NCBI GenBank assembly: GCA_020639315.1
Contig: JACKGM010000001.1
Location: 18,511 to 82,510 of the forward strand
DNA length: 64,000 nt
Direction: 5' to 3'
DNA from: Candidatus Nomurabacteria bacterium
GTDB lineage: Bacteria > Patescibacteriota > Saccharimonadia > JAGOAT01
The notes beneath the pieces are model-generated. The model did no database searches and had not been told where the DNA came from. It saw only the letters and a program-made list of their open reading frames with translations. How positions within the stretch are numbered: the stretch's first letter is position 1; the number at the start of each line of letters is the position of its first letter. The translations under genes were made by a program, and so were the position numbers. Positions 16,948-58,024 of the stretch are shown in pieces.

Positions 16948-18272
<1,325 letters not shown>

Positions 18273-18289
18273 TTAGTTATCCTAACACA

Positions 18290-18855: not shown

Positions 18856-19021
18856 TATAGCAAGCTCAAACCAAAACTAGACAATTTGAGCTGTACTATA
18901 GAGAACTATAAAGGTAGTTCTTCTTAAGAGCCATATCCATATAGGTATGGTGAGTAAGAAAACTAGCTTGATAGACTCTAGAGTTGGGTCAAAAGTCTGG
19001 TTTTGTTTTTAACTTGCTATA
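18856..19021 (-). mobile_element. MITE family B, full copy (inverted relative to 13157-13320)
   Basis: TATAGCAAGCTCAAACCAAAACTAGAC...GGTTTTGTTTTTAACTTGCTATA, collinear with the other copies. Confidence 0.9.
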
Positions 19022-21016: not shown

Positions 21017-21904
21017 TCAAGTAATCGATGCTTGATAAATGCCCTGGATAGTATCAGCCAATTTTTGGTTAAACTGCTCATCTGACTGATCAGCTGACAG
21101 ACCTTCGGCCAAGGCTCGACTAAAGCTAGCTATTAGACCTATGTTGCTACTAAGTCGCTGATTGGCAAGCTCCCGATCATACCCTCCAGAAAGTGCTACC
21201 ACTCGTACGACATTGGGATGACCCATCAAATCTTGGTACAAATTGTCACCCTCGGGTATGGTCAGCTTGAGCATTACCAACTGATCAGGCGTGAGCTTGC
21301 CCAACTCTTCAAGTAGTAATCCATGCAGGATCGACTCTATCTCTCCCTTGTCTTCGGCATTGATATCTACCTCTGGCTCAATGATTGGGACTAAATCAGC
21401 AGCACTAATCACCCGTGCTAGCTCAAACTGTTGCTCGACTACCTCTCTAATGCCTTCTGGGTTATTCTGCTTGATCACTGAACGCATCTTGGTACCAAAG
21501 ATATTTTTGGCGTTTGCTTCATCTAAGATTTGGTCAAGATTAACGATTGGCTTCATCAGCTGGACTCCATTTTCAAGCTCGGCCAGCCCCAAATCAATCT
21601 TGAGAAATGGGACAATATGTTTTCTCTCCCAAAGATAATCAGCAGTATCTATCCCCTCGATCTGGCTAATCATAGTTTGCCTAAAAAGGATTGCCCCCAA
21701 GATATAGTCATTAGAAAAAGCTGGACTAGTGATAATCCTGGTACGCATTTGGTGGACGAGATCATACATCTCGGCTTCAGTGCTATAGCTATCCTCGCTC
21801 ACCCCATATGACAAGAGAGCCTTGGGGGTAGAGCCACCACTTTGATCTAATGCAGCGATAAAGCCTTGGTTGTTTTTGATTTGATTGAGTTGTGTTTTAT
21901 TCAT
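21017..21904 (-). CDS. fba: Fructose-bisphosphate aldolase, class I
   Basis: [30 protein letters not shown]..., LMKP, IIEPEV and MLKLTIPE closely follow Gram-positive class I FBA. Start placed at MNKTQL (rc ATG 21902-21904), with TGTTATAAT 6 nt upstream. Confidence 0.88.
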
Positions 21905-21910
21905 GACTTT

Positions 21911-21928
21911 ATTATAACATGATAAAAT
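21911..21928. promoter_or_regulatory. Back-to-back divergent extended -10 boxes (fba on minus, 56-aa ORF on plus)
   Basis: Minus strand: TGTTATAAT (rc 21911-21919), then AAAGTC, then ATG 21904. Plus strand: TGATAAAAT (21920-21928), then GAGCAG, then ATG 21935. Confidence 0.5.
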
Positions 21929-21934
21929 GAGCAG

Positions 21935-22105
21935 ATGGAAAAAAATACCCCGCACGAAAGCGAAGTGTCACTCGAAACCGTACAGGGACAATTCAATAAA
22001 GATTTATGGGAGCAACCAGAGTGGAGACAAATCCTAGCAAACATTAGCGGTCGAAAGCTTTCTTCTCTAGGTCAAGATACCCCCCTCTTTCAATTGAGCC
22101 AATGA
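21935..22105 (+). CDS. Small hypothetical protein (56 aa, below track cut-off)
   Basis: My translation is [65 protein letters not shown] at 21920-21928 lies 6 nt before the ATG. The stop TGA overlaps the next ATG (ATGA at 22102-22105). Confidence 0.45.
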
Positions 22106-23039: not shown

Positions 23040-23363
23040 TTAGTTCGGCTTGTGCTGTAAGCATACAATCTTCGAAAGATAGCCCAGAGAAAGTAATAAA
23101 ATACTCGATTGTAGTCTCAGCTTTGGATTAAGAGAAAGTTTGCCAAACAATTGTTTGATGGCTATCCTTGGCATTTGATAATACCTCTCCAGGACAAAAA
23201 CTGTTTCAGCAATTGCTAGGTCAGCAATATATACCTGGTGGCAACTATTTACCAGATTGATTGCAATCTCCTGCTGATACTTAACATCCCCTACTACCAA
23301 CCGGACCAGCACATTAGTATCTATGGCAACCTTCTTTAGTAGCTTGCCCTGTTTAACTCTGGC
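23040..23363 (-). CDS. vapC: PIN-domain toxin (VapC-like), short
   Basis: The VAIDTNVLVRLVVGD N-terminal acidic motif is typical of PIN domains. The gene overlaps the upstream antitoxin gene by 11 nt. From MARVKQG it is only about 107 aa, so it may be degenerate. Confidence 0.6.
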   Translation of the reverse strand, partial: ARVKQGKLLKKVAIDTNVLVRLVVGDVKYQQEIAINLVNSCHQVYIADLAIAETVFVLERYYQMPRIAIKQLFGKLSLNPKLRLQSSILLLSLGYLSKIVCLQHKPN

Positions 23364-23613
23364 CATTAGAAACTGGGCGATTTTTTTGATAATACTCAGC
23401 GGGGTCTTTGAGAGGTTTGACCTTAGCAATATTTGATTGAACAAACTGACTAATATCTTTGAAGCTTTCTGGCCGAGAAATTATAACCTTGCGACCAGAC
23501 TCATCAAAGTCTATAGTCAATCTATCCCCAAGCTTGTTTACCCCTAGCTGCTGGCGAAACTTAATGGGCATAGTGAATGTACCCTTGCTAGTCATTGTGA
23601 TAGTATCTACCAT
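23353..23613 (-). CDS. vapB: AbrB/SpoVT-type antitoxin (VapB/MazE-like)
   Basis: 86 aa with an N-terminal swapped-hairpin-type segment, TMTSKGTFTMPIKFRQQLGV. TATAAT (rc 23621-23626) lies 7 nt before the ATG. Confidence 0.65.
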   Translation of the reverse strand: MVDTITMTSKGTFTMPIKFRQQLGVNKLGDRLTIDFDESGRKVIISRPESFKDISQFVQSNIAKVKPLKDPAEYYQKNRPVSNGQS

Positions 23614-23666
23614 GGTAAGAATTATATAGCTAGTAAGAATTTATTGTAAAGTATGACTATGAGTGT

Positions 23667-25872: not shown

Positions 25873-26914
25873 AAATCACCTTTCCCTCGCCTGGATTAAT
25901 CAAAAATTCTCCCCCAGAATAAATCACTTGATTGGATTTTGTGACTTGACTAACCTTTCCTGGTACTACCATACCCGCAAAGGGACTCCACTGAGCCTTA
26001 CTAAAGAATTGGCTAGGGTCAAGCTCGTAGCTCTCCATCTTGATACTGATTAGATAATCTTCCGGCTCTAAGTTAAATATCTCTTTCGGTCTAGTATGGC
26101 ACTTATCTATTATTTGTTCGATGCTAATCTTACCCTGTTTGTACGCACTTAAGAGTAAGGGCAAAGTCGTCTCAAGCCCGGGCACACCAAATGCTCCTCC
26201 TACCTTATCCTCAAGTGTATGAGGAGCGTGATCAGACTCGACAATATCAATCTGGTCAAAATTCTCCCATAGATAATCTTGATCCCGTTCTGATTTGAGG
26301 CTAGGCAACATCTTAGCGTGATCACCAATCCTGCCTGTATCAAGTTCGCTTAAAAATAAATGATGAGGCGTAACGCCACAGGTCAGATTGTAACCTTGAC
26401 GCTTAGCCTTGATAATCTTTTCAAGCACTTCCTTGCTCGGCATATGACAGATATGGACTGGACGATTAAGACCTCTTAGCGACTCGAGTGCCAAGTCAAT
26501 AGTATCTTCCTCGCTATGGAGTAAGACGACCTTATCCTCCGGCCAAGCTTGATAAATCTTGCGCAGGTGTTCTATATCTAGCAAATACCCTCCAGTAGTC
26601 TTATTGAGGTATAGCTTAAGTCCGATCGCCAAATCACTGACCCCTGGGAATTGATCTAGATTGTCACCAAGAGAACCGAAGTGAAACCCAAGCTCAACCA
26701 AGGTTTTACCCTTGGCGATTGTGATTTTTTCTTCTAGCTTTTCTAGGCTAGTAATGGGCTGAGCATTGTTTGGCATATCGACGATGGTCGTGAACCCTCC
26801 AGCTAGGGCTGCCTTTGTGCCAGAGATAAAGTCTTCCTTAGTAGTCTGCCCAGGATCACGCAAGTGTACATGGACATCGATTAGGCCTGGTAGTAGTATT
26901 TTATCCTGGCTCAT
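25862..26914 (-). CDS. pyrC: Dihydroorotase
   Basis: Metal-binding LIDVHVHLRDPG, plus HLF and ESDHAPH motifs. Start placed at MSQDKILLPG (rc ATG 26912-26914), because the track N-terminal extension runs into a MITE fragment. Confidence 0.88.
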   Translation of the reverse strand: MSQDKILLPGLIDVHVHLRDPGQTTKEDFISGTKAALAGGFTTIVDMPNNAQPITSLEKLEEKITIAKGKTLVELGFHFGSLGDNLDQFPGVSDLAIGLKLYLNKTTGGYLLDIEHLRKIYQAWPEDKVVLLHSEEDTIDLALESLRGLNRPVHICHMPSKEVLEKIIKAKRQGYNLTCGVTPHHLFLSELDTGRIGDHAKMLPSLKSERDQDYLWENFDQIDIVESDHAPHTLEDKVGGAFGVPGLETTLPLLLSAYKQGKISIEQIIDKCHTRPKEIFNLEPEDYLISIKMESYELDPSQFFSKAQWSPFAGMVVPGKVSQVTKSNQVIYSGGEFLINPGEGKVIYGK

Positions 26915-26929
26915 TAATTTTAATTGTAT

Positions 26930-26970
26930 CATAGTTAAAAACAAAACCGGACAATGTGAGCTGTACTATA
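26930..26970 (-). mobile_element. MITE family B, terminal fragment abutting pyrC start
   Basis: CATAGTTAAAAACAAAACCGGACAATGTGAGCTGTACTATA matches the first 42 bp or so of the copies at 18856 and 36115. Confidence 0.75.
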
Positions 26971-29338: not shown

Positions 29339-29620
29339 CTATTTCATTAAGCTATCCAGGTGGGCTAATGCCCCTTTTGCCCCCTTAGTATGTGTAATAT
29401 CACGGTCAGCTACATAATCGGCTTTAGCGTCCCTCATGATCTGTTCTAGGTAGGGAGTAGGCTCTAGGTTAGTACTCAAAACGACACGCCTATCTCGTAA
29501 AGTCTGTTTTACGACCATATTTACAAGAGCGGTACTAGACACACCTAACTCGGTAGCAAAAGTCTTTAGCTCCTGTTTGGTTTTCTCGTCAATCTTAATA
29601 CTTAACTGTACGCTACCCAT
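29339..29620 (-). CDS. RelB/DinJ-like ribbon-helix-helix antitoxin
   Basis: 93 aa. The N-terminal VQLSIKIDEKTKQELKTFATELGVSSTALVNMVVKQTL is an RHH-type segment like DinJ. Confidence 0.65.
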   Translation of the reverse strand: MGSVQLSIKIDEKTKQELKTFATELGVSSTALVNMVVKQTLRDRRVVLSTNLEPTPYLEQIMRDAKADYVADRDITHTKGAKGALAHLDSLMK

Positions 29621-29749
29621 AGTATAGTCATTGTATATCTATCGTATATGTATGTCAATACGATCGATATTGCTTTACAGCCCATAGTATATTCAATGGG
29701 GCCTGAAAGTATCTATCCTGATAACGACTTTAGTGAACGGTATTGTACC

Positions 29750-30129: not shown

Positions 30130-30456
30130 CTAAAGGGTAAAGAATTCAACCATCTGGCTACCCAGGCTGGTTTTTTCAAGCACTAGATAAGTCACCAGAT
30201 AAAACACCCCGACAATCGCTACCATGGTCAGCGACCGTTTGATCTCCCGATTGACATAATGTAGTCTCTGATCGATATAGACCTTGTCATGCTCGGCTTT
30301 GGCAGAAAGCTTCGGATTATCTTTGGGTTTGCTTATCTTAGCTGACTTCTTAGAAACCACTTCTTGGTCTGAGGCAGTCGCTTGATCGTTACTGACCTTT
30401 GAGGCTACAGGGCGAGCCTGAGACTTTTGCTTCTTCTTGATATGGGATTTTGGCAT
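30130..30456 (-). CDS. Small Lys-rich protein with C-terminal TM helix
   Basis: 108-aa ORF with a basic disordered N-terminus and the helix LTMVAIVGVFYLVTYLVL. TGCTACAAT (rc 30463-30471) lies 6 nt before the ATG. Confidence 0.55.
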   Translation of the reverse strand: MPKSHIKKKQKSQARPVASKVSNDQATASDQEVVSKKSAKISKPKDNPKLSAKAEHDKVYIDQRLHYVNREIKRSLTMVAIVGVFYLVTYLVLEKTSLGSQMVEFFTL

Positions 30457-30491
30457 AAGACTATTGTAGCATATGATATGATTAATAACAT

Positions 30492-30965
30492 ATGGAGAGG
30501 ATTGTTCTAACTATCGCTATACTGAGCTTGGCATTGTCAGCTTTCGCAATCAAGCAGCTTCATGACCTTAGAACAGTCTACAATAAGATTTTTGCCTACA
30601 ATAAGTCTGGTGGTGAAAAAACCGACCTAAGGCATCAGCTGGAACAGTACAGCTCTGAAGTCCAAAAGTGCCTAGATCAATTGGATCAATTGGCTGGGTA
30701 CACCGCCAAGCTCCACAAACAGATCCAAACCAGCTCCCAAAAGATTGGCCTGATTCGTTTCAATCCCTTTAAGGATACAGGTGGTGATCAAAGCTTTTGC
30801 CTGACTATTCTCGATGCCCACAATACAGGCTACTGCCTTTCTAGTATTCATACCCGTTCTGGCACCAGAGTCTATTGTAAAGAAATCCAAAAAGGTAAGA
30901 GCCTCCATCACCTTTCAGAAGAAGAACAAGCTTCTATCACGAAGGCAATCAGTGTAAAATATTAG
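30492..30965 (+). CDS. DUF4446 family protein
   Basis: 157 aa with an N-terminal TM helix, a coiled-coil segment and a C-terminal LIRFNPFKDTGGDQSFCLTILD...SIHTRSGTRVY pattern that I associate with DUF4446. Confidence 0.6.
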   Translation: MERIVLTIAILSLALSAFAIKQLHDLRTVYNKIFAYNKSGGEKTDLRHQLEQYSSEVQKCLDQLDQLAGYTAKLHKQIQTSSQKIGLIRFNPFKDTGGDQSFCLTILDAHNTGYCLSSIHTRSGTRVYCKEIQKGKSLHHLSEEEQASITKAISVKY

Positions 30966-32409: not shown

Positions 32410-34143
32410 CTACCCTATCTGATCAAACCCGACCAGCTCCACGCGATCTTGATCTCGATGCTTGAGCTCAACCTGATCACTAGCTAATGTCTTAGCACTA
32501 ATAACCAAGCGAATCGGATTACCAATCAAATCCGCATCGGCAAACTTCTCCCCTGCCCGAATATCAAGACGATCATCCCAGAGTACCTCAAGTCCTTGAC
32601 TAGTCATCGACTGGTATAATTCCTCCGCCTTGGTGTAAGCTGGCTCCTCTACACTCCTAGCTAACGAGATCAGATGATATCTGTATGGTGCTACCACTTC
32701 AGGCCAAATTATTCCCTTCTCATCATGATCAAGCTCGACTATTGTAGCAATAGTTCTACCTACCCCTATCCCGTAACATCCCATATAGTATGGCTTTCTA
32801 TCTCCATTCTGATCGGTATAATTGGCATTATCCATCAGTGATGAATAATGATACCCTAGCTGGAAAATATTCCCAACCTCTACACCTTTCTTGCCTTCAA
32901 GTGGTCCCCCTGAGACTGCAATATACCCTGGCTGAGCCAAGGCAATATCTGCGACCTTATCAGCTATAAAATCACGCTGATAATTGATGCCAAGATAGTC
33001 AAAATTATCCTGATTGGAGCCGCTGGCAGCATTGACCATCTTGACGACCGAATCATCGATTACTACTGTCAAATCTTCATCCTCTGGCAAGTTATCTCTA
33101 ATATCGACTGGAGAAATAAAGCCTGGGTAGCTACCTAATCGCTCGATTACTTCTTGGTCGGTCAATGGTTCGATCTGGCTGACATCTACCTGATGCGCGA
33201 GCTTTACTTCATTGACATCCAAATCTGCCCTGATGCAAGCCAAGACTAGTCGATTCTTGCCGGTCTTGTAGGCAACATTTTTGATATGATTGATTAGACT
33301 CAATTGATGGAATTCTACTCCATCTGCCATAGTCTTACCTCGCTTGGCTTCTACCAATTTAAGCTGTTGAGGCTCACTACCTGAACTGATCTTCTCTGGC
33401 TTTGGTCCACTATAATCATAGCTTTTATCAAAAACTGCTACATCCTGATGAGCCTGATAAGAGCCAGATTGATCGACTAGATAGTCACTTTCTCCTGCCT
33501 CGGTGTCAACAATATACTCGTGACAATACTCACCCCCGATATAGCCATTGTCAGACTCTACGCGGTGAGCATCGAGACCCAGTCTAGTGAAGATCGCCTG
33601 ATAAGCATCAGACATAGATTGATACTCTTTGGCAAAATCAGCCTCAGAACTATGAAAAGAATAAGCGTCCTTCATAATAAACTCCCGGACCCGCAGCAAC
33701 CCTCCCCTAGCCCTCAATTCATCTCGAAACTTCATCGAAAATTGGTAGAGATTGAGTGGCAAATCTCGATAGCTAATGTTAAATTTCCTGATCAGATCGA
33801 CTACCATTTCTTCAGCCGTACCCCCCAAGACAAATCTTGCTCCTCTCCTATCTTCGACCTGCATCAGCTCGAAGCCCGCTGCCTGATCTCGATTGGTCTC
33901 CTGCCAGAGATCCAGCGAGTGCAAGACTGGGGTGATAATTTCTTGAGCACCCCTCTTGTCCATTTCTGAGCGGATTACTTCGATCAATTTGTGCTGCACC
34001 CTGATCCCAAGTGGCAGTAAATAATACCTTCCAGCACTAGACTCCCTGATAAACCCTGCTTGAGTCAGGAGCCTGTGTGAATCGACTTTGTAATCCAGCC
34101 CAACTTCCTTACTGGGTTTGGCAAAAAGCTTTGAAAATTTCAT
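32410..34143 (-). CDS. proS: Proline--tRNA ligase
   Basis: 577 aa with class II aaRS motifs (FRDELRARGGLLRVREFIMKDAYSF; GCYGIGVGR) and an internal editing-domain-sized insertion. Confidence 0.92.
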   Translation of the reverse strand: MKFSKLFAKPSKEVGLDYKVDSHRLLTQAGFIRESSAGRYYLLPLGIRVQHKLIEVIRSEMDKRGAQEIITPVLHSLDLWQETNRDQAAGFELMQVEDRRGARFVLGGTAEEMVVDLIRKFNISYRDLPLNLYQFSMKFRDELRARGGLLRVREFIMKDAYSFHSSEADFAKEYQSMSDAYQAIFTRLGLDAHRVESDNGYIGGEYCHEYIVDTEAGESDYLVDQSGSYQAHQDVAVFDKSYDYSGPKPEKISSGSEPQQLKLVEAKRGKTMADGVEFHQLSLINHIKNVAYKTGKNRLVLACIRADLDVNEVKLAHQVDVSQIEPLTDQEVIERLGSYPGFISPVDIRDNLPEDEDLTVVIDDSVVKMVNAASGSNQDNFDYLGINYQRDFIADKVADIALAQPGYIAVSGGPLEGKKGVEVGNIFQLGYHYSSLMDNANYTDQNGDRKPYYMGCYGIGVGRTIATIVELDHDEKGIIWPEVVAPYRYHLISLARSVEEPAYTKAEELYQSMTSQGLEVLWDDRLDIRAGEKFADADLIGNPIRLVISAKTLASDQVELKHRDQDRVELVGFDQIG

Positions 34144-34149
34144 AGCCTA

Positions 34150-34158
34150 ATTGTATCA
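34150..34158 (-). promoter_or_regulatory. Extended -10 (TGATACAAT) 6 nt before the proS ATG
   Basis: Minus strand reads TGATACAAT-TAGGCT-ATG. Confidence 0.55.
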
Positions 34159-34211
34159 CCTTTCTCCACAGTAAGACATTCCCCTAAAAGTGACCCCCAT
34201 TTTTGCCATTT

Positions 34212-34270
34212 CAAGGGCACCCCTTGAGCATTTATATCTGTAAAAAAATTATTTTCAAGGGCACCCCTTG
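34212..34270 (-). repeat. Twin-palindrome module, type D (CAAGGGCACCCCTTG x2)
   Basis: Palindromes at 34212-34226 and 34256-34270 (44-bp period), with core TTTATATCTGT. It lies between divergent proS and infC. Confidence 0.9.
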
Positions 34271-34360
34271 AAAATAGCAAAAGCCCTAGAAGGTTGGATT
34301 TGTGTATTTTTAAGAAATATGATAAGTTAGGTAATGAATAAATGATGAAGATTATCAAGT

Positions 34361-34897
34361 TTGAATAACAAAGCGTCACAACCTAGGCGTAACTTCGTGC
34401 GGATCAACCAGCAGATCCGTGCTGATCAAGTGCGAGTATTGTCTGAAGATAAAGAGATGCTGGGGGTAATGAGTGTATCCGAAGCTCTTAATAGAGCCAA
34501 AGAGTCTGAACTAGACTTGGTAGAGATATCTCCAAATGCCAAACCTCCTGTGGTACGCATCGTCGACTGGGGTAAATACCGCTATGAAAAAGAAAAACAA
34601 GCCAAGCAAAATCAGAAAAATCAAAAGCAACAGGAGCTCAAACAAATCCGCTTGAGTCTCAAGATTAGTCCTCACGATCTAGATATCAAGATCGGCCAAG
34701 CCAAAAAGTTTTTGACCAAAGGTCACAAAGTCAAGCTAACCGTCAGGCTCAAAGGGCGCGAGATGCATCATAGCTACCTTGGTAAAGAGGTATTGGAGAA
34801 ATCTCTGGAAATCCTTGCTGACTCTGCCAAAGCCGATAGCACCGTCCGTAAATCAGGTCGGGAGTTCTCGATCACGGTCTCACCTGTCAAGAAGTAG
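34361..34897 (+). CDS. infC: Translation initiation factor IF-3
   Basis: 178 aa with RINQQIRADQVRVLSEDKEMLGVMS and KPPVVRIVDWGKYRYE. The only in-frame start after the upstream stop (34346-34348) is TTG 34361, consistent with the atypical starts known for infC. Confidence 0.9.
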   Translation: MNNKASQPRRNFVRINQQIRADQVRVLSEDKEMLGVMSVSEALNRAKESELDLVEISPNAKPPVVRIVDWGKYRYEKEKQAKQNQKNQKQQELKQIRLSLKISPHDLDIKIGQAKKFLTKGHKVKLTVRLKGREMHHSYLGKEVLEKSLEILADSAKADSTVRKSGREFSITVSPVKK

Positions 34898-36114: not shown

Positions 36115-36278
36115 TATAGCAAGCTCAAAACAAAACCGGACAATTTGAGCTGTACTATAGAGAACTAGAAAGGTAGTTATTCTTAAGAGCCATATTCATA
36201 GATATGGTGAGTAAGAAAACTAGCTTTATAGACTCTAGAGTTGGGTCAAAAGTCTGGTTTTGTTTTTAACTTACTATA
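36115..36278 (-). mobile_element. MITE family B, full copy
   Basis: TATAGCAAGCTCAAAACAAAACCGGACAATTTGAGCTG...GGTCAAAAGTCTGGTTTTGTTTTTAACTTACTATA. Confidence 0.9.
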
Positions 36279-37400: not shown

Positions 37401-37429
37401 TTGCTATTTATCCAAATATAAGATATAAT
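37401..37429 (+). promoter_or_regulatory. Sigma70-type promoter of rpmI-rplT (TTGCTA-17-TATAAT), -10 ends 7 nt before the ATG
   Basis: TTGCTA at 37401-37406, a 17-nt spacer, TATAAT at 37424-37429, then CACCATT and ATG 37437. No SD. Confidence 0.6.
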
Positions 37430-37436
37430 CACCATT

Positions 37437-37631
37437 ATGCCAAAATTGAAGACTAGCAAAACCGCCAAGAAGCGAATCAAGGTCACCTCGAGTGGACTTT
37501 TGATGCGTCGCAGAGCTACTCGCGCTCACAAATTGTCAATCAAATCAGGTGCTAGAAAGCGGGAATTTACCAAAGAGTTTGTGTTAAACAATACCGAAAC
37601 CAAGAAAATCAAGAAATTAATCGGAGTCTAA
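37437..37631 (+). CDS. rpmI: 50S ribosomal protein L35
   Basis: 64 aa: MPKLKTSKTAKKRIKVTSSGLLMRRRATRAHKL. Confidence 0.95.
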   Translation: MPKLKTSKTAKKRIKVTSSGLLMRRRATRAHKLSIKSGARKREFTKEFVLNNTETKKIKKLIGV

Positions 37632-38388: not shown

Positions 38389-39054
38389 CTAACCAAAAAT
38401 CAACTGGATAAAGTCCTGACTAGCTTGTTCTAGCTGGCCTTCTCTATTGATAACAAAATCAAACCAACCCTGACCCTGATTCTTCCTCGCCCATTCAAGC
38501 TCAGTCTTTGTAGTGCCCAGCCTAGTAGCTAGCTTACCCCTATCTATCTCATCTCCACTCTCCTGCCAACGCCTGAGAATTCTACGCTCAAGTATCTGAA
38601 GATTACTGTCCAGATCATTTAATGGTGCAGGAGCAATGAATATTACTTTCAAATCAAGCTCCCTTCTAATAATCTCGATGCCTTGATATTCTATCTCGAG
38701 TAGTACCTTCCTGCCCGCCTCAAGCGGTCTTAGGATTGATAAAATCGGTGTACCATAGTAATTGCCATGTGCCATGGCATATTCCAGGAATTCACCCTGA
38801 TCAATCTTTTGCTCAAACTCAGCTTTGCTCAAGTGGCAATACGCTTTGTATGGTCTGATGTCACCAATCTCGGCCACTTGATCTCGTTGCTCTCTAGCTC
38901 TAGAAGTAGCACTGACTGGAATCACCAATTTTTGATCACCCTCTAGCCTGGAATTGACCATCTGTTCCAGCGCATTCTTCCCAGCTCCCGACGGGCTGAC
39001 GATCGCATACAGATTACCTTGACTCAACTCTCTTAGGTGATCTATGTCTGACAT
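38389..39054 (-). CDS. gmk: Guanylate kinase
   Basis: P-loop IVSPSGAGKNAL and FLEYAMAHGNYYGT. Start placed at MSDIDHL (rc ATG 39052-39054), because the track extension runs into a MITE terminus. Confidence 0.8.
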   Translation of the reverse strand: MSDIDHLRELSQGNLYAIVSPSGAGKNALEQMVNSRLEGDQKLVIPVSATSRAREQRDQVAEIGDIRPYKAYCHLSKAEFEQKIDQGEFLEYAMAHGNYYGTPILSILRPLEAGRKVLLEIEYQGIEIIRRELDLKVIFIAPAPLNDLDSNLQILERRILRRWQESGDEIDRGKLATRLGTTKTELEWARKNQGQGWFDFVINREGQLEQASQDFIQLIFG

Positions 39055-39060
39055 AGAGAG

Positions 39061-39066
39061 ATTATA
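39061..39066 (-). promoter_or_regulatory. -10 box TATAAT formed at a MITE-B terminus, 6 nt before the gmk ATG
   Basis: Minus strand reads ...GTATGCTATAAT-CTCTCT-ATG. TATA (39063-39066) is the MITE end and AT (39061-39062) is flank. Confidence 0.5.
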
Positions 39067-39226
39067 GCATACCCAAAACAAAACCGGACAATTTGGGATT
39101 ACTAATAAAGAGCTAGAAAGTTAGTTCTTTATATGAACCTTACTTATAAGTAAGGTGAATAGAAAAACTAGATTTGTAGACTTTAGTAGTGGGTCAAAAG
39201 GCTGGTTTTGTTTTGAGTATGCTATA
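39063..39226 (-). mobile_element. MITE family B, subfamily 2, full copy
   Basis: TATAGCATACCCAAAACAAAACCGGACAATTTGGG...GGGTCAAAAGGCTGGTTTTGTTTTGAGTATGCTATA. Its left terminus abuts the gmk start. Confidence 0.9.
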
Positions 39227-41947: not shown

Positions 41948-43379
41948 CTCCACCCCGTATCATGATTAGAACTGTCCTAATAATAATCTTAATATCCAGC
42001 CAAGGTGACCAGTGTTCGGCATAATATATTTCTAACCTCAGTCGATCCTGATAATCTAGCTGATTTCTGCCTGAGACTTGCCAAAGACCAGTCAGGCCTG
42101 GCTTGATCATCAATACCTTGTCTTTGCTCTGTTTGTGAGCATTGAGTTCGTCTGGCAAATGAGGCCTGGGACCAACCACACTAAGTTGCCCTAGTACTAC
42201 ATTGACAAACTGGGGCCACTCATCGACCCCCAGTCTTCTAAACAATGCAGTTGCTGGGTTGATCCTAGGGTCAGGATTGAGCTTATGATCTCTTTTGTAG
42301 ACCGGTATCAGATCTGCCCTACCCATTCTGGTCAATGTCTGGACTGGATCCGAATTTGGGTAACCCTTACCATCAGAATACCTATATAGCATTGTACGAA
42401 ATTTATAGACTCCAATCTCCTTACCCCCCCTACCAAGCCTCTTGGTCTGATAGATTACTCCACCCTTGGGATCAGATAGCTTGATAACAATTGCCATCAG
42501 TATCATGACCGGAAATCCCAACACCAAAGCACCCAAGCCAAAGACTGTATCAAACACCCTTTTGCCAATCAATTGAAATCCGGTCAACGGAGTGGGGTCG
42601 ATCTGGCTGATGATTTGACCGCCAAAATATTGATTGGTAATTCTACCTTGATAAAGGTTTTGAGTAGTTGGTAGGTATTGATAAATCTTACTAGCCTGGT
42701 GAACGATCTCTACTAGCTCCCACTGTATACTCTTACTGATCGATCCCCCTATCTCAATGATCAAATCTATCTGATCATCCCTGACACCCTGAAGCACTTG
42801 ATCGACTATCTCTTCTCGATCAAGCTGATCGACAATCAGTAGCTTGACCTCTACAATCTGCTGATCCTGCTGAATAGATTGCCTGAGACTCTCAAGATGC
42901 TTGGGCTGCTTGCTACTAGCAATAATCATTGCTCTTCTTAACCCATAACGTTTGAGATAGAGTAGTTGACGCAATTGGCCGACAAAGTATCTCCCGATAA
43001 AAAGTAGCAATACTGCAAATACCCAGGCTAGTACTGGCACTAACTTTGAAGGAAATAGAGGCTCAACTGTGAAATAATCTATCAGGATAGTTAGAACAAT
43101 ACTAGATAGACTAGCTAGTAACAAGCGGCCAAACTGATGTCTGCGACCTCGGGCTGGAGTAGTATATAGTCCAGTAGCAAAGAAGATAATTATCCAGAGC
43201 GGAATCACTGGCAAGATCAGCTTCAAATACTCTTGACCACTGATCGCGAAGGCAAATGGCTTGTCTGAGTAATCTCCTCTGACTAGATAGGCCAAAACAA
43301 ACCCCCCAAGCATTGCTAGGAAATCTACCCCGACTTGAAGCAGGTTGACTAGTTGCTCGCTTCTTTTTTGCATAGTCAT
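41937..43379 (-). CDS. Polyprenyl glycosylphosphotransferase (WbaP/EpsL-type priming sugar transferase)
   Basis: TM-rich N-terminal half and a C-terminal bacterial sugar transferase domain (VFDTVFGL...IYQTKRLGRGGKEIGVYKFRTM...GPRPHLP...KPGLTGLWQVSGRN). Start placed at MTMQKRSEQ (43379, or 43373). The track N-terminal 77 aa are translated repeats. Confidence 0.85.
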   Translation of the reverse strand: MTMQKRSEQLVNLLQVGVDFLAMLGGFVLAYLVRGDYSDKPFAFAISGQEYLKLILPVIPLWIIIFFATGLYTTPARGRRHQFGRLLLASLSSIVLTILIDYFTVEPLFPSKLVPVLAWVFAVLLLFIGRYFVGQLRQLLYLKRYGLRRAMIIASSKQPKHLESLRQSIQQDQQIVEVKLLIVDQLDREEIVDQVLQGVRDDQIDLIIEIGGSISKSIQWELVEIVHQASKIYQYLPTTQNLYQGRITNQYFGGQIISQIDPTPLTGFQLIGKRVFDTVFGLGALVLGFPVMILMAIVIKLSDPKGGVIYQTKRLGRGGKEIGVYKFRTMLYRYSDGKGYPNSDPVQTLTRMGRADLIPVYKRDHKLNPDPRINPATALFRRLGVDEWPQFVNVVLGQLSVVGPRPHLPDELNAHKQSKDKVLMIKPGLTGLWQVSGRNQLDYQDRLRLEIYYAEHWSPWLDIKIIIRTVLIMIRGGDGV

Positions 43380-43400
43380 ATTATAGCATTCCCCCGATGT

Positions 43401-43460
43401 CGCGAACTGTTCGCGGTTTTTGCCACTTTGCCAGATTAGAAATGTCGCGAACTGTTCGCG
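43401..43460 (-). repeat. Twin-palindrome module, type E (CGCGAACTGTTCGCG x2)
   Basis: Palindromes at 43401-43415 and 43446-43460 (45-bp period). The spacer is GTTTTTGCCACTTTGCCAGATTAGAAATGT. It lies 13 nt from the -10 of the sugar transferase gene. Confidence 0.9.
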
Positions 43461-43543
43461 GTTTTTGCGCCAGTGCTTAGTGTTTCTTATAAACTCGATA
43501 AGTGCCGTATCTTGCCCCATACTCTTCATGAGTTTTGCAACTT

Positions 43544-43665: not shown

Positions 43666-44934
43666 CTACCAAGACAAGGTAGCGAAATAATCCTCACGAG
43701 TCTGGGGCCGACGAATCATTTTAATTTCTCCATCTGGCTCCAAAAGATACTCCCCAGCACGCAATTTACCATTGTAATTAAATCCCATTGCGTGAGAGTG
43801 AGCACCAGCATCCCTAATCACTACTATATCTCCAGCTTCCATCTCTGGCAAAGGTCGATATTTGGCATCCTTGCCAGTAAAGAAATCATTATTTTCACAG
43901 AGACTTCCGACCACTGCTTGATCAACTATTCGGCGACCTTCGGGATTCAAAACTTCAATCCCGTGATAAGCATCATACATGCCTGGACGCATCAAATCAG
44001 CCATCGTGGCATCCACCCCGACAAACCTTCTACCTTCATACCCCAGCTTGACACTTCGAACCTGGGTCACTAGATAACCGTGAGGCCCAGTAATATGCCG
44101 ACCGTTTTCTGTCATAATTCTGAGAGGTGGTAAGCCTTTATCTAGAATCATTTCTCTATATACAGATTCTAGTCCGCTAGAAAGCGCTTTGTAATCAATC
44201 GGTTTCTGATCTGGATGATATGCCACGCCCAACCCTCCTCCTAGATTGACAAACTTTATCCCAATCCCTGCTTGTGCCAGCTCAGCTACCTTGGAAAAAA
44301 GGATTCTAGCAGTATCTATATGTTGAGCAACATCAAGCTCATTGGAAACCAACATAGTATGGATACCAAAATGTTTAGCTCCGTATTTAGAAGCCAGCTG
44401 ATAAGCTTCGATTAAATCATGCTCTGGCAAACCAAATTTGGAGTCTTCAGGCCTACCAATAATACTATTATGACCAGCCTTTCTACTTGAGCCTGGATTG
44501 TAACGAAAAGATATTGTCTCAGGAAACTCACTTCCTAATGCGGATCTAAGTACCTCAATCTGATTAATATCATCGAGATTGATAATGGCCCCTTGCCTAT
44601 AGGCCTCCCGGTATTCTTCAGGATCTACATTATTGGCAGTAAACATTACTGCCTCACCTGTCATATCTGCCATCCTAGCTAGCTCTAGCTCTGGACCGGA
44701 GCTAGCATCTGCTCCCATCCCTTCCTCTCTTAATATATCTAAAATATGAGGGTTGGGATTAGCTTTGACTGCAAAATAGTTCTGGTAATCGAACCCTGTA
44801 TTTGACAGCGCCATAGACAAGCTACCGGCAGTCTGCTTGATACCTACTTGATCATACAAATAATATGGTGTCGGGAAATCATTAGCCTTGATTGCCCTTA
44901 GGATCCTGGGTGGTAATTGAATCTGACTACTCAT
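43666..44934 (-). CDS. lysA: Diaminopimelate decarboxylase-like PLP enzyme (Orn/DAP/Arg decarboxylase family)
   Basis: 422 aa with YFAVKANPNPHILDILREEGMGADASSGPELELA, NLGGGLGV and GSLCENNDFF. Confidence 0.75.
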   Translation of the reverse strand: MSSQIQLPPRILRAIKANDFPTPYYLYDQVGIKQTAGSLSMALSNTGFDYQNYFAVKANPNPHILDILREEGMGADASSGPELELARMADMTGEAVMFTANNVDPEEYREAYRQGAIINLDDINQIEVLRSALGSEFPETISFRYNPGSSRKAGHNSIIGRPEDSKFGLPEHDLIEAYQLASKYGAKHFGIHTMLVSNELDVAQHIDTARILFSKVAELAQAGIGIKFVNLGGGLGVAYHPDQKPIDYKALSSGLESVYREMILDKGLPPLRIMTENGRHITGPHGYLVTQVRSVKLGYEGRRFVGVDATMADLMRPGMYDAYHGIEVLNPEGRRIVDQAVVGSLCENNDFFTGKDAKYRPLPEMEAGDIVVIRDAGAHSHAMGFNYNGKLRAGEYLLEPDGEIKMIRRPQTREDYFATLSW

Positions 44935-45029
44935 ATCGTATGTTATAATTTTACCATGAGTATTACTCCTCTAAACCAGCAATCCTCTGCGAGTCTAGTG
45001 GGAGCAAAAGCGGACAATCTTTGGCTACT

Positions 45030-45193
45030 TATAGCAAGTTAAAAACAAAACCAGACTTTTGACCCAACTCTAGAGTCTATAAAGCTAGTTTTCTTCTTCA
45101 CCATATCTATGGATATGGCTCTTAAGAAGAACTAACTTTCTAGTTCTCTATAGTACAGCTCAAATTATCCGGTTTTGTTTTGAGCTTGCTATA
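45030..45193 (+). mobile_element. MITE family B, full copy
   Basis: Near-identical to 13157-13320 over its full length. Confidence 0.9.
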
Positions 45194-45279: not shown

Positions 45280-45711
45280 CTATAAATGATTTTTGAAGTA
45301 TTCTTGCAACATCCTAACTTCTGACTCTAATATATCAATATCTACAGAGTTACTAGGATCCAGCCATAGATAATGGTCATGCTCATCGCTCAATATTACT
45401 TGCGTGGACTCAGCTTTGCATAAAAAATAGATGCCCACTATTTGATTTCTTATACCTTTGATAACTGGTCTCCATTCCCGAACAAAAATTGGTTTAATAA
45501 TCTCAACATTAAGCCCAGTCTCCTCCTTGACTTCCCGATATAAGCCATCTTCAACTTGCTCGCCAATCTCCAGGCGTCCACCTGGAATAGAGTACTTACC
45601 TATATTCGTACCTTCGGTGTAAGTACTAGCTTCCCTCAGTAATAAATACTGACCATCGTCATTAATAATCAATGCCTTAGTGGCGATTCTTTGTAAATCA
45701 ACGGTACTCAT
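45280..45711 (-). CDS. NUDIX hydrolase
   Basis: Nudix box GGRLEIGEQVEDGLYREVKEETGL. Confidence 0.85.
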   Translation of the reverse strand: MSTVDLQRIATKALIINDDGQYLLLREASTYTEGTNIGKYSIPGGRLEIGEQVEDGLYREVKEETGLNVEIIKPIFVREWRPVIKGIRNQIVGIYFLCKAESTQVILSDEHDHYLWLDPSNSVDIDILESEVRMLQEYFKNHL

Positions 45712-45736
45712 GATTAATCTATCTTACCACAATAAA

Positions 45737-45945: not shown

Positions 45946-46746
45946 TCAAGCCACGCTCTTGCGATAACCTGCCGGTTTTTGCCTATTTTGACTTCGGCTC
46001 TTGATTACTGGCTTTGGGCTGGTTTTGATGCCTGCAGGCTTGTCGCTACTGGACGATTGAGATCTGCTGGATTGATTAGATTTTGACTGCTGTTTGGGTC
46101 TAGTAGATTGGTTGTCAGGGTTAGCTACAGTCTGGGCTGGCTGGTTAGCGATCGGAGTCCAACCATCTGGTTTATTGGCTGTTTTCTTAGATTGGGTTCG
46201 ATTGTTGTCACTTGACCGCGTTGCCCGAGAAGCCTGAGGCCTGCTATCACTTCGCCTATTGTACGGCTTATACTCAATCTGCCTTCTTAGATCACTGACA
46301 AAGCTGATTTCAACTGTAGCATTCTTGAGCAGAGCTGAATAATTCCTCTGACTAGGAACCAATAGGTGAGCTAGCTTATTACGCTTGCCCAAATATTCGA
46401 CCAAGCAATAGAAGTCCCCGTCACCTGTGACTAGAACTGCTTGGTCATAATTATCAATATCTGTCATTGCCTGAAGTACCATCTCAGCATCAGTATTGCC
46501 CTTGATATCCCCCGCTTGATTTTCAAGAGTTGGCTTAAACATCAAAATAAATCCTGCCTCTTGCAATCCCTTATAAAGATCTGAATTGCTATCAACAAAA
46601 CCAATAAACATATAGGCTTTGGTAACCTGGTAGGTATCTTCCAAATATTTGCGAAACTTACGATAATCCAGCTTCCAGCCATGGCTGCGAATCGCCATAT
46701 TTAAGTTTTGACTATCAACAAAAGCGTAATTGTATACTTGACTCAT
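45946..46746 (-). CDS. NYN/LabA-like domain protein with disordered basic C-terminus
   Basis: N-terminal YAFVDSQNLNMAI...AVLVTGDGDFYCLVEYL. The C-terminal 100 aa or so are S/Q/K/R-rich. Confidence 0.7.
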   Translation of the reverse strand: MSQVYNYAFVDSQNLNMAIRSHGWKLDYRKFRKYLEDTYQVTKAYMFIGFVDSNSDLYKGLQEAGFILMFKPTLENQAGDIKGNTDAEMVLQAMTDIDNYDQAVLVTGDGDFYCLVEYLGKRNKLAHLLVPSQRNYSALLKNATVEISFVSDLRRQIEYKPYNRRSDSRPQASRATRSSDNNRTQSKKTANKPDGWTPIANQPAQTVANPDNQSTRPKQQSKSNQSSRSQSSSSDKPAGIKTSPKPVIKSRSQNRQKPAGYRKSVA

Positions 46747-46754
46747 CTGATAGT

Positions 46755-46763
46755 ATTATACCA
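46755..46763 (-). promoter_or_regulatory. Extended -10 (TGGTATAAT) 8 nt before the ATG of the NYN-domain gene
   Basis: Minus strand reads TGGTATAAT-ACTATCAG-ATG. Confidence 0.5.
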
Positions 46764-47946: not shown

Positions 47947-47957
47947 CTCATATAGTC

Positions 47958-47963
47958 TATAAT
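47958..47963 (+). promoter_or_regulatory. -10 box TATAAT 6 nt before ATG 47970
   Basis: TATAAT-ACAACT-ATG. Confidence 0.45.
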
Positions 47964-47969
47964 ACAACT

Positions 47970-48566
47970 ATGAGCGAACGCAACTGGGGTAATGGTAATT
48001 TGCCTAAACGCCCAAACCTACACCTAGTACCAGATTTGGTATACGAACAAACCCCTCAAGGTGTTGATGCTATATTCTTGAAGCTATTGCTAAGACCAAC
48101 TAATACTGAAGCTGTTACAGAAATACTCGATAACTTAGTTTTACGAAAGAAGGAAAACGAAAAAGCACCAATAGTAATCTCGGCTCCCCCCAAAGAACCC
48201 GGTGATGATGTTTTTGACCAAGCTGCTAGACAGTATTTCCCAGATGAGAAACTACTTGGCAACGTACTTAATTCCGAATCCGAAGAAAAAGAGACTATAC
48301 TTGTATGCTACCTTGCAATCAATTATCATCCTAAACCCGACTCATCAGGGGAGCCCACATCCTATCCACTTAAAATTCATGTGGGAAACCATTTCTTTAT
48401 ACCAAAAACTAAAAGGTCGTACTATCTGTTCTGTCCACCTGGACTATATACACCTATAAGCCCTGTTCTTAGCCCGCCAAACCCCTTTAATACCAGAGCT
48501 ATAATTTATAACCCCCGACTAAGGCATCCTAGCCATCTACCTCCGACACCTCCTAGAGCTAGCTAG
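47970..48566 (+). CDS. Hypothetical protein with Pro-rich C-terminus
   Basis: 198-aa ORF. TATAAT at 47958-47963 lies 6 nt before the ATG. No motif recognised. Confidence 0.55.
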   Translation: MSERNWGNGNLPKRPNLHLVPDLVYEQTPQGVDAIFLKLLLRPTNTEAVTEILDNLVLRKKENEKAPIVISAPPKEPGDDVFDQAARQYFPDEKLLGNVLNSESEEKETILVCYLAINYHPKPDSSGEPTSYPLKIHVGNHFFIPKTKRSYYLFCPPGLYTPISPVLSPPNPFNTRAIIYNPRLRHPSHLPPTPPRAS

Positions 48567-48849: not shown

Positions 48850-49252
48850 TACTACTACTCCATCTGGAGTCTCATGCAGTAAAGAATAAGCTGTAGCCCG
48901 TCATATCTTTTAACATTACTATTCAAATTAAGTTGCCAAAGTGCCAAATCAAACCCCAGTCTCGTTTCTTCTGTGGGAGGCTAGATCACCAACGTTGAAG
49001 TCCTCTGGGAATACTAGCTCACTATTCATATCCATACTGATATTGTAACACCTTGGCAAGAAATAAAATATTAGATACATAAACGGGATACTCGCCACTC
49101 GTTGCTTACATCAAATCACTATCGAATTGAATACAAGTCTTGAATATCCCGTATTTACAATTCGATATTGGCTAGTGCGCCGATATTAATGTGATGTAAG
49201 CAAATTAATCCTAGCATAGTGCTTACGCTTCTAGCAACCATTTCACCCATTT

Positions 49253-49311
49253 CAAGGGCACCCCTTGCAGTTTTCTATCTGTAAGAGATGCTTTTTCAAG
49301 GGCACCCCTTG
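49253..49311 (-). repeat. Twin-palindrome module, type D
   Basis: Palindromes at 49253-49267 and 49297-49311 (44-bp period), with core TTTCTATCTGT. Confidence 0.9.
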
Positions 49312-49403
49312 CATTATAATTCTCACTTCTCCCCAGTCATTACCTATACCCACCCTACTAGCCCTGGCAGCATTGGACCGAGATCACAGATATTCTAAAA
49401 TAT

Positions 49404-49543: not shown

Positions 49544-50362
49544 CTATTTACTCAAATAAATAAAGGGCATACTACCATCTGTGCTGATCCTATCTCCCCC
49601 ACTATTGATAGTATGATATGCATCTGTAAAATGCGTGATTATCTCTATATCTTTGACCTGTCCATTATCTTCCAAATTCTGGATGATATAATCTCTCTCT
49701 TCGTCAATATTCTCAGCAATCTTGTGGTTGAGCTGAACTGTCAGCCAGGTGATCCCAACGCTCCTATCATAGGTCGCTGCACCCACCCAATCTGCTTTAT
49801 GTCCTCCAGGCATCCGCCAACCATCTGGCGTTTTCCAGAGTCTAAGATGATGCCTACTCCTAGGATTGGCATCCACTTCTTTCTGAAATACAAGATCTGG
49901 TTTCTTACCAAATAAATAGCTATCACTAACTGGGGCTGTCGGATAACTCCGCTTGAGCAAACCAGCATACAAGATCTTGGCATAGCTTAGCAAATTTTTT
50001 TGATCTGCCTGATGCCAACCACTTATCCTGAATGCATTTAAGACTTGCTCTTGTTCCCCAAACAAAACTAGATTGATCGGGTCCGAAAGTAATCCATCAG
50101 CTGTGCGTGTTCTACCAATATAATAATCTGGTAGATAAATCTTGGTCAAAATTCGATGAATCCTTGGTAGTGTGATATAAGCAGTGATCAACCAAAGTAG
50201 CAAGAAGGGCAAAATCGGGTTCCAGTCGTCCACCAGATCATCGATCAAACTTCGATAGACCAAGTAGCCCAAAATAACCAACCCGATAAAATACAGCACC
50301 CTCTGCCCTATGAGGATAGTGTTGATAGTCAAACCCTTGACTCGCCCTAGTTTTCCAAACAT
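49544..50362 (-). CDS. Membrane protein with LssY_C-like C-terminal domain
   Basis: 272 aa with two N-terminal TM helices and PRSRHHLRLWKTPDGW...WVGAATYD, which resembles the LssY C-terminal family (from memory). TAAAAT (rc 50370-50375) lies 7 nt before the ATG. Confidence 0.5.
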   Translation of the reverse strand: MFGKLGRVKGLTINTILIGQRVLYFIGLVILGYLVYRSLIDDLVDDWNPILPFLLLWLITAYITLPRIHRILTKIYLPDYYIGRTRTADGLLSDPINLVLFGEQEQVLNAFRISGWHQADQKNLLSYAKILYAGLLKRSYPTAPVSDSYLFGKKPDLVFQKEVDANPRSRHHLRLWKTPDGWRMPGGHKADWVGAATYDRSVGITWLTVQLNHKIAENIDEERDYIIQNLEDNGQVKDIEIITHFTDAYHTINSGGDRISTDGSMPFIYLSK

Positions 50363-50424
50363 CCCTTGTATTTTATGCTCAAAAAGTCACCTTTTCAAGG
50401 AGGGAGGGCTAGGTTGGCTAGTCC

Positions 50425-52787: not shown

Positions 52788-53236
52788 TTGGGGTTTTCTA
52801 CTTATAAAAATAATGAAGAAGTTCTCACCAGAATACCCCTACCAGTGAGAACAGTTTTGTTTGAACACTTTGTCTTGATAATATATATATCATAAATGTC
52901 ACAATATGTCAAACATAATGTCAATAGATAGGCTTTCTACCTCCTGCCGTCAGCCCTATTTGTCAATTCTATAATAATGCGTACTAAGCAGTGTATAAAA
53001 AGGTTCCCACATCCTCATAGCTTTTTTGTGGGTCAGAGTGTTAAGCTTGACCAAGCTATAGCAACTGCAATCACAAATATAGCAAGTTAAAAACAAAATC
53101 AGACATTTCTATCGATCGCAATTCCTGACTAGATTCCAGATTGTAACCCGCTCATGCTTGCATTTCAAATCATTTTTGCTAAGATGTAATCAATCCCCTC
53201 TATCTTTTATCAAAGTGAGGACAGCAGCAAAAACCT

Positions 53237-55995: not shown

Positions 55996-56101
55996 ACTTT
56001 CCCCTAGTGTTAATGTCTTATGAGTTTTTATTATATCGCACACTGCTAATATATCCCAATAAACCTGGCCCAGCAACAAACTTGCCCTCTAGCCAAACTG
56101 T

Positions 56102-56161
56102 GGCGAACTGTTCGCGGTTTTTGCCACTTTACCAGATTGGAGATGTCGCGAACTGTTCGCG
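56102..56161 (-). repeat. Twin-palindrome module, type E
   Basis: GGCGAACTGTTCGCG at 56102-56116 and CGCGAACTGTTCGCG at 56147-56161 (45-bp period). The spacer is GTTTTTGCCACTTTACCAGATTGGAGATGT. It lies upstream of glmS. Confidence 0.9.
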
Positions 56162-56171
56162 ACAATACGTC

Positions 56172-57299: not shown

Positions 57300-57313
57300 A
57301 CTATATAACTATA

Positions 57314-57346
57314 CAACAAAAAACCGCCTAGTTGAGAGGCGGTTTC
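57314..57346 (-). terminator. Rho-independent terminator downstream of padR
   Basis: Minus strand reads AAACCGCCTCTCAACTAGGCGGTTTTTTGTTG, i.e. a stem AAACCGCCT/AGGCGGTTT followed by a T-run. Confidence 0.75.
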
Positions 57347-58005: not shown

Positions 58006-58008
58006 AAA

Positions 58009-58017: not shown

Positions 58018-58024
58018 TGGGGGT

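Follow-up and report, generated by a model that had tools for sequence, protein, structure and literature searches.

How is translation begun at genes whose start codon stands directly behind a promoter? The question is raised by the rpmI gene for ribosomal protein L35 (Pfam L35) in a stretch of 64,000 nucleotides from a Candidatus Nomurabacteria bacterium (contig JACKGM010000001.1, positions 18,511 to 82,510), a member of the candidate phyla radiation (CPR), which was analysed as a whole and is called the window below. On the plus strand, at 37401-37439, rpmI is preceded by TTGCTA (37401-37406), a gap of 17 nt, TATAAT (37424-37429) and the seven nucleotides caccatt, upon which the ATG (37437-37439) follows immediately. 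An initial annotation of the window had described this string exactly as we find it, had listed 21 such arrangements of a -10 hexamer, a short spacer and an ATG, all of which are present as written (21/21), and had proposed that most first-in-operon genes are translated from mRNAs that begin at their AUG, that is, without a leader and without a Shine-Dalgarno (SD) sequence. Our analysis shows that the arrangement of -10 box and ATG is real and far above chance. We further consider it probable, from sequence, that a large fraction of the box-bearing transcription units give mRNAs with no leader at all or with one no longer than 3 nt.

Position of the -10 box relative to start codons

A hexamer was counted when A at its second and T at its sixth position were fixed and at least five of its six bases matched TATAAT; bases 5' of the hexamer were ignored. 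Starts were picked without regard to the motif, as the first ATG of each open reading frame (ORF) of at least 100 aa (n=62; 61 where 70 nt of upstream sequence were required). Under these rules 17 of 62 first ATGs (27%) have a hexamer ending 4-10 nt upstream, compared with 3.9-6% of internal or short-ORF ATGs. The hexamers are concentrated at spacings of 6, 7, 8 and 9 nt (7, 3, 3 and 3 cases), whereas the other positions of these upstream regions hold about 0.6 each. For spacings 5-9 of the 61 first ATGs, this amounts to 17 observed and 3.1 expected hexamers (5.4-fold, Poisson p 4e-8), the expectation being an internal control derived from offsets 14-53 in the same set of sequences.

The same script was applied to comparison loci, CPR and non-CPR, that had been fetched with the prolyl-tRNA synthetase ProS. 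It gave no enrichment in 70 non-CPR loci (ratio 0.99), in a GC-matched subset of them (0.91) or in 143 non-CPR loci (0.93). The exact string TGNTANAAT occurs 30 times in the window, whereas first-order Markov simulations predict 15.4 ± 3.5, and 15 of the 30 have, at N4-10 (4-10 nt) downstream, the ATG of an ORF of 50 or more codons, so that practically the entire excess is at gene starts. None of the controls, whether the upstream regions themselves, the 143 non-CPR loci or the simulations, shows such an enrichment. At the distance typical of archaea (spacings 20-30), no hexamer enrichment was seen upstream of the first ATGs of the window. Altogether we count about 19 strong and 7-8 second-tier sites, of which 25 were aligned; their spacers are N6 (ten sites), N7 (six), N8 (four), N9 (four) and N5 (one).

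Promoter identity of the boxes

The sequence next to the hexamers points to RNA polymerase. TG stands one base 5' of the hexamer in 15 of the 29 hexamers with an ATG-initiated ORF at N5-9, and in 51 of the 808 others (odds ratio 16, p 2e-10), an extension for which the hexamer rule does not select. In the alignment of 25 sites T, R, T and G occupy positions -5 to -2, with a purine at position -4 in 24 of 25, and the consensus reads T-R-T-G-n-T-A-n-A-A-T. No column of the -35 region exceeds 0.4 bits, and rpmI, which was also recovered by a generic scan, is the sole site with a recognisable -35 box. A classical two-hexamer (-35/-10) scan of the window gave 43 sites and 40.6 in shuffles, hence no excess, so that the signal is specific to the combination of -10 box and ATG spacing and is not that of a classical -35/-10 promoter.

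These features make the boxes promoters of the extended -10 kind, also known as '-16 region' promoters, a signal that RNA polymerase reads in the DNA. TRTG promoters of this type are familiar from Bacillus subtilis and streptococci, where the -35 box is weak or dispensable and the mRNAs normally carry leaders with an SD. The sites of the window share with these Firmicutes promoters the T-R-T-G-n-TATAAT motif and the weak or dispensable -35 region; they differ in that the Firmicutes mRNAs are leadered and contain an SD, whereas here the box is placed for a transcription start at the ATG.

Link between the boxes and translation

The placement of the boxes depends on the start codon. Among in-frame codons with at least 100 codons downstream, an extended box at N5-9 precedes 14 of 227 ATG, none of 114 GTG and one of 313 TTG codons, the background for all codons being 0.35%. 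This restriction to ATG fits the AUG dependence of leaderless translation.

The boxes also depend on operon position. With genes scored as operon-internal when a same-strand gene ends at most 25 nt upstream or overlaps, a box is found at 18 of 45 operon-first genes if the first ATG is taken as the start, or at 25 of 45 if the start is chosen by the motif; of the 23 operon-internal genes, 2 have one (Fisher p 0.01 for first-ATG and 2e-4 for motif-chosen starts). The proposed preference for operon-first genes is thereby borne out. The word 'most' is slightly overstated: the box is common at operon-first genes, and box-bearing transcription units make up 40% (starts picked without the motif) to about 55% (motif-chosen starts) of the total.

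SD motifs show the complementary distribution. Tetramers GGAG, GAGG or AGGA ending 3-11 nt upstream of the start occur at 17 genes without a box (5 expected, p 2e-5) and at one box-bearing gene (1.5 expected, no enrichment), which indicates that SD initiation operates in this organism, but is excluded from box-bearing genes. The absence of SD sequences at box-bearing genes, as initially claimed, thus holds for the set, though AGGA at tgt and GGGGG at rsmI are possible SDs. Genes named in the initial annotation as SD-led contrasts indeed carry GGAG/GGGG-type motifs at the right distance: ORF 36072 (aaaggagag), ORF 37299 (agagggag) and glmS (55995, aggggaa). The operon-internal genes have an SD or start/stop overlaps of -4, -8 and -11 nt.

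Two divergent gene pairs are especially compact. At 21902-21937 the ATG of an aldolase-like gene (21904, minus strand; TGTTATAAT-N6-ATG; Pfam class-I aldolase) and that of a 56-aa ORF (21935, plus strand; TGATAAAAT-N6-ATG) are separated by 30 nt, a gap completely filled by one 9-nt box and one 6-nt spacer per strand, with the two boxes abutting. At 30454-30494, ORF 30456 (minus strand; TGCTACAAT-N6-ATG) and the DUF4446 gene (30492, plus strand; TGATATGAT-N9-ATG) likewise have back-to-back boxes, with their ATGs 35 nt apart. Divergent ATGs at distances of 30-35 nt leave no room for leaders. A scan of the window with Rfam at gathering score returned zero matches and a tRNA scan no tRNA gene, so that no leader of the L20 or glmS-ribozyme type competes with the leaderless interpretation.

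Proposed mechanism and alternative explanations

Position and composition of the motif, its specificity for codon and operon position and the exclusivity towards SD are observed; transcription start sites and the mode of translation are what we infer from them. A holoenzyme with a sigma-70-type factor would recognise TRTGnTAnAAT without a -35 box. Across bacteria, transcription start sites centre 7 bp downstream of the -10 element (PMC12641261); a start 7 nt after the hexamer would, with the modal N6 spacer, coincide with the A of the ATG, and spacers of N7-N9 would give the same start or leaders of 1-3 nt. The resulting 5'-AUG mRNAs without SD would enter the leaderless pathway, in which ribosome and initiator tRNA bind the 5'-terminal AUG, and genes further downstream in operons, together with the remaining first genes, would use an SD or coupling by start/stop overlap. 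Every sequence-level test available agrees with 5'-AUG initiation as it was initially proposed.

Four other explanations have to be weighed against leaderless expression. The TA-rich element might act in RNA, as a non-SD ribosome-binding site or S1-binding enhancer of the Bacteroidota-like 'group B' kind, with the promoters lying further upstream. Its A/T-rich composition, its location where a ribosome-binding site would be and the many operon-internal genes without a clear SD are compatible with such a role. A general ribosome-binding site would, however, be expected at operon-internal starts, of which only 2 of 23 have the motif, and this absence argues that it is not a Bacteroidota-type site. 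The TRTGn extension is moreover typical of recognition of DNA by RNA polymerase, the ATG pairs 30-35 nt apart would leave upstream promoters only inside the neighbouring gene, and SD sequences are clearly in use elsewhere in the window, which makes an RNA-level element distinctly improbable. Alternatively, the promoters could be real and the true starts lie further downstream, so that the genes have short leaders or are mis-annotated. One candidate start, 12288, did prove wrong, and in-frame starts exist downstream of others, for example GTG 58034 after GGGGG and ATG 61107. We nevertheless regard downstream starts as unlikely, since the Pfam profiles of L35, RsmI, amidohydrolase, DUF4446 and NYN begin at or near the motif-linked ATG, relatives of ProS align from residue 1, and such starts would account neither for the strict confinement to ATG nor for the modal N6 spacer.

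Repeated or mobile intergenic elements could also have carried the boxes, with their adjacency to ATGs as a by-product of insertion: a family of 165-nt palindromic repeats has TGCTATA at its outer ends, the boxes of 26914 and 39054 are each immediately preceded by a solo half-copy, and the rsmI box is inside a copy of another repeat. As repeats accompany only 3 of the roughly 25 sites and the flanks of the other boxes are unrelated, this is a very improbable explanation for the pattern; it would, besides, account for the origin of some promoters rather than for their function, and is compatible with leaderless expression. Chance or base composition, aided by a selective choice of starts, is scarcely credible. 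Intergenic DNA is AT-rich, a hexamer of this kind is found close to about 5% of all ATGs, and the initial annotation did choose among alternative starts, but tests without motif-chosen starts are still highly significant, the upstream-region, 143-locus and Markov controls lack enrichment, and the generic -35/-10 scan stays close to its shuffled value, so that the signal is specific to the box and its spacing to the ATG.

Some observations weigh against leaderless expression, or limit its extent. The dataset is small, one 64-kb window with about 68 genes. At four sites the assignment is ambiguous, because AGGA, contained in the hexamer TAGGAT, precedes tgt, GGAG lies in the spacer of ORF 13077 and GGGGG in that of rsmI, and a better box stands at N13 of the lysA-like gene. 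Transcripts from sites with N8-N9 spacers may carry leaders of 1-3 nt. The false positive at 12288 shows that weak hexamers without TG can mislead, and in relatives with 50-56% protein identity the box arrangement is patchy and not conserved from one gene to the next.

Start codons

For about ten genes, the start of the mechanically longest ORF lies 6-237 nt upstream of the motif-linked ATG, and the initial annotation had suggested that several starts be corrected. Protein family boundaries place the N-termini of Pfam families at the motif-linked ATGs, as far as can be told from profile alignments: residues 2-61 of L35 correspond to profile positions 1-60 and residues 1-213 of the RsmI-like protein to 1-209, and the alignments begin at residue 6 of the amidohydrolase (profile position 1), residue 5 of the DUF4446 protein (position 6) and residue 9 of the NYN protein (position 5). 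The longer forms of ORFs 26914, 39054 and 43373 traverse repeated non-coding elements that are also found in clearly intergenic places, which supports the corrections and makes them plausible; the longer GTG-43610 form of the sugar transferase ORF (43373), for instance, crosses a duplicated palindrome element (43402-43459).

Three candidates were rejected or set aside. The arrangement at 12288 (TAGAAT-N8-ATG) is inside an ApbE domain, which covers residues 18-272 of the longer TTG-12519 form. Candidates 3718 and 59736 were set aside for their weak hexamers and for upstream ATGs with AGGA or AGGAG that are equal or better. The 50814 gene has TGGTAAGAT-N8-TTG at a possible start.

Box-bearing genes along the window

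The window has a GC content of about 42%. Its GC skew is strongly negative in every 4-kb bin (-0.07 to -0.17), and the minus strand holds about 70% of the genes; the whole of it is probably part of a single replichore, and its plus strand, in the orientation given here, would be the lagging strand. No rRNA gene is located within it. The gene names given initially agree with Pfam, apart from 'vapB', which has no Pfam match of its own, though it lies 5' of a PIN-domain gene.

On the plus strand, besides rpmI, the boxes belong to a GalT-like gene (674-692; TGATAAAAT-N7-ATG at 690; Pfam), the M1 peptidase gene pepN (7413-7430; TGGTAAAAT-N6-ATG at 7428; Pfam), a 105-aa ORF (14963-14981; TGGTAAAAT-N7-ATG at 14979), a 198-aa ORF (47955-47972; TATAAT-N6-ATG at 47970, 23 nt from the divergent ATG 47946) and the rsmI-like methylase gene (58009-58027; TGGTAAAAT-N7-ATG at 58025; Pfam methylase).

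The minus-strand genes supported by Pfam matches include that of an ArsR-type regulator (4909-4926; TATAAT-N6-ATG at 4911; ArsR-type helix-turn-helix), the pyrC-like amidohydrolase gene (26912-26955; TGATACAAT-N8-ATG at 26914), gmk (39052-39092; TGCTATAAT-N6-ATG at 39054; guanylate kinase), the sugar transferase gene (43371-43388; TGCTATAAT-N6-ATG at 43373; Bac_transf), an NYN-domain gene (46744-46763; TGGTATAAT-N8-ATG at 46746) and an AI-2E transporter gene (63366-63385; TGATACAAT-N8-ATG at 63368; AI-2E). For proS (34141-34158; TGATACAAT-N6-ATG at 34143), the start is backed by the alignment of its relatives. In the case of tgt (18270-18287; TGTTAGGAT-N6-ATG at 18272; Pfam TGT), AGGA is an equally possible SD, and the 179-aa ORF at 13075-13095 (TACAAT-N9-ATG at 13077) may be leaderless or SD-led. 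The lysA-like gene (44932-44956; Pfam Orn/DAP decarboxylase) combines a weak TATAAC-N7-ATG (44934) with the better TGGTAAAAT box (44948-44956) 13 nt from the ATG, which implies a leader of about 6 nt.

Second-tier sites, likewise on the minus strand, are those of a RelB-like gene (29618-29638; TACAAT-N9-ATG at 29620; no TG extension, long spacer, weak Pfam match), a NUDIX gene (45709-45729; TGGTAAGAT-N9-ATG at 45711; a 4/6 hexamer with TG extension; Pfam NUDIX), an LssY_C gene (50360-50378; TAAAAT-N7-ATG at 50362; no TG extension; Pfam) and an M24 peptidase gene (57297-57316; TATAGT-N8-ATG at 57299), which follows right after a terminator-like hairpin and T-run. The latter was absent from the initial list, as was the M16 peptidase gene (61111-61127, minus strand; TGCTATAAT-N5-ATG at 61113), whose perfect box falls within the 3'-terminal part of the gene before it (61085-62140); the two genes overlap by 29 nt, and the box is a candidate for an internal promoter that would give a leaderless transcript.

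The toxin-antitoxin-like genes at 23040-23629 and 29339-29638 (both minus strand) show the leaderless-type arrangement at the promoter-proximal gene of either locus. In the first, this is an 86-aa ORF 5' of the PIN-domain gene (23611-23629, minus strand; TATAAT-N7-ATG at 23613; the 'vapB' of the initial list), which overlaps the PIN-domain gene next downstream by 14 nt; in the second, it is the RelB-like gene named above.

Two perfect extended -10 boxes, TGTTATAAT-N6-ATG (44941-44958, plus strand) and TGTTACAAT-N6-ATG (49028-49058, minus strand), open ORFs of only 28 codons, which could be leaderless small proteins, or else the boxes could be promoters of non-coding RNAs. The first of them stands back-to-back with the TGGTAAAAT box 5' of lysA. 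The infC gene for initiation factor IF3 (34361-34897, plus strand) has no ATG before the conserved RINQQIR region, and its first possible start is TTG 34361, at which neither an SD nor a -10 box is evident. Unusual start codons of infC are known in other bacteria, and the gene found here fits this pattern. It is divergent from proS and separate from rpmI-rplT, which have a leaderless-type promoter of their own.

Repeat elements near the promoters

Three kinds of repeats were observed. The largest are palindromic intergenic elements of about 165 nt, with full copies at 13160-13320, 18860-19020, 36118-36276 and 45033-45190, all of which lie between two minus-strand genes and share 79% mean column identity, and partial copies at 14816-14833, 26938-26955, 39075-39092, 53090-53107 and 63635-63652. 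Their core 18-mer ATTGTCCGGTTTTGTTTT has 13 matches (0.06 expected), and the fold of one copy is a long and almost perfect hairpin (-57 kcal/mol, z -9). The outer ends, TGCTATA, resemble an extended -10 box, and two solo half-copies, each represented by the 18-mer, stand directly 5' of the promoters of the pyrC-like gene (26938-26955) and of gmk (39075-39092). The element could be a miniature inverted-repeat transposable element or a terminator/promoter cassette.

The window has three copies of an element of about 85 nt (34190-34275, 49231-49315 and 57940-58027). Each copy contains two TTCAAGGGCACCCCTTG(A/C)A hairpins 44-45 bp apart, and this hairpin has 7 matches where 0.01 would be expected. 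The copy that overlaps the rsmI promoter is the source of the GGGGG in the rsmI spacer, and a further copy separates the divergent genes proS and infC. The element could function as a pair of operators or as a structured RNA. Finally, a segment of about 75 nt is duplicated on the minus strand (43395-43465 and 56095-56165), upstream of the sugar-transferase ATG 43373 and of glmS. It comprises two perfect palindromes GCGAACAGTTCGC 45 bp apart, the period also seen in the paired-hairpin element, and might serve two cell-envelope genes as a common operator.

Comparison with known leaderless systems

The expression mode proposed here is well known in other bacteria. In genomes of the GeneMarkS-2 'group C' (Lomsadze et al. 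2018, PMC6028130), operon-first genes have their start codon 6-8 nt from a Pribnow box and the rest have an SD; 25-50% of the operons are predicted to be leaderless, and the group is frequent in Actinobacteria (90%) and Deinococcus-Thermus (97%), the clades named there, whereas the window belongs to the CPR or Patescibacteria. Box distance, operon-first restriction and SD at other genes are shared by the window, which appears, by its sequence, to have group C architecture in each feature tested. Its low GC content (42%) is a point of difference, and its share of 40-55% is at the upper end. Boxes of group C have the minimal form TANNNT, whereas the full extended -10 box TRTGnTAnAAT is found here.

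In Mycobacterium tuberculosis, M. smegmatis and Deinococcus deserti, the transcription start site equals the start codon, with the -10 box directly upstream and no SD, as demonstrated by differential RNA sequencing (dRNA-seq) and proteogenomics (cited in PMC6028130), whereas for the window this is deduced from sequence. Archaeal leaderless genes ('group D') resemble those of the window in that mRNAs begin at the start codon and the operon fraction is high; their box lies 22-26 nt upstream, a distance at which no peak is seen here. Mycobacteria also use GUG-initiated leaderless mRNAs, whereas the signal of the window is confined to ATG.

Distribution in relatives and implications for CPR bacteria

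In genome and metagenome collections, the closest relatives of ProS (32410-34143, minus strand) are found in metagenome-assembled genomes (MAGs) of Saccharimonadales, Saccharibacteria and Patescibacteria, with 50-56% identity, and non-CPR bacteria reach at most 42%; an identical ProS protein is encoded on a 5-kb contig of MAG GCA_020428505.1. By these matches the window belongs to a Saccharibacteria-like lineage that stands rather isolated within the CPR. At this distance, conservation was assessed as a lineage-level frequency. Pooled over 17 CPR loci, 42 hexamers were observed where 14.9 were expected, a 2.8-fold peak (p 7e-9; ratio for 143 non-CPR loci, 0.93). The excess is largest in loci L006, L008 (WWE3), L082, L086 and L102, and CPR loci L001-L003 show no -10 excess. 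A -10 box at N5-9 precedes the proS orthologue in 6 of 16 CPR and 2 of 134 non-CPR loci (p 1e-5), for example as TGGTATAAT-N6 in a Microgenomates contig and as TGATATAAT-N9 in a Dojkabacteria contig. From these frequencies, the trait seems to be recurrent but patchy in the CPR. That leaderless initiation is recurrent, and possibly ancestral, in CPR classes (Saccharimonadia-like, WWE3, Dojkabacteria, Microgenomates) is a tentative proposal, to which we give a little less than even credence.

A study of CPR ribosomes found the anti-SD retained, except in some Parcubacteria (PMC9297842). For the CPR no report of leaderless expression was found, in a literature search on Saccharibacteria/TM7, Patescibacteria/CPR and Parcubacteria whose coverage was limited and which is no proof of novelty, and the NCBI annotation pipeline may already model leaderless starts silently. 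The known mechanism would remain unchanged and its taxonomic range be extended: if the trait is indeed recurrent in several CPR classes, the CPR would be a further large clade with group C architecture, besides Actinobacteria and Deinococcus-Thermus, perhaps tied to its reduced ribosomes. Gene callers that expect an SD can misplace starts in such genomes, and start codons would then be systematically mis-annotated in CPR MAGs. For the few cultivable Saccharibacteria that are now becoming genetically tractable, the window suggests TRTGnTATAAT-N6-ATG as a minimal expression cassette. CPR bacteria combine reduced ribosomes with a debated deep position in the bacterial tree, and a heavy use of SD-independent 5'-AUG initiation by these organisms would bear on ideas that regard leaderless initiation as ancestral.

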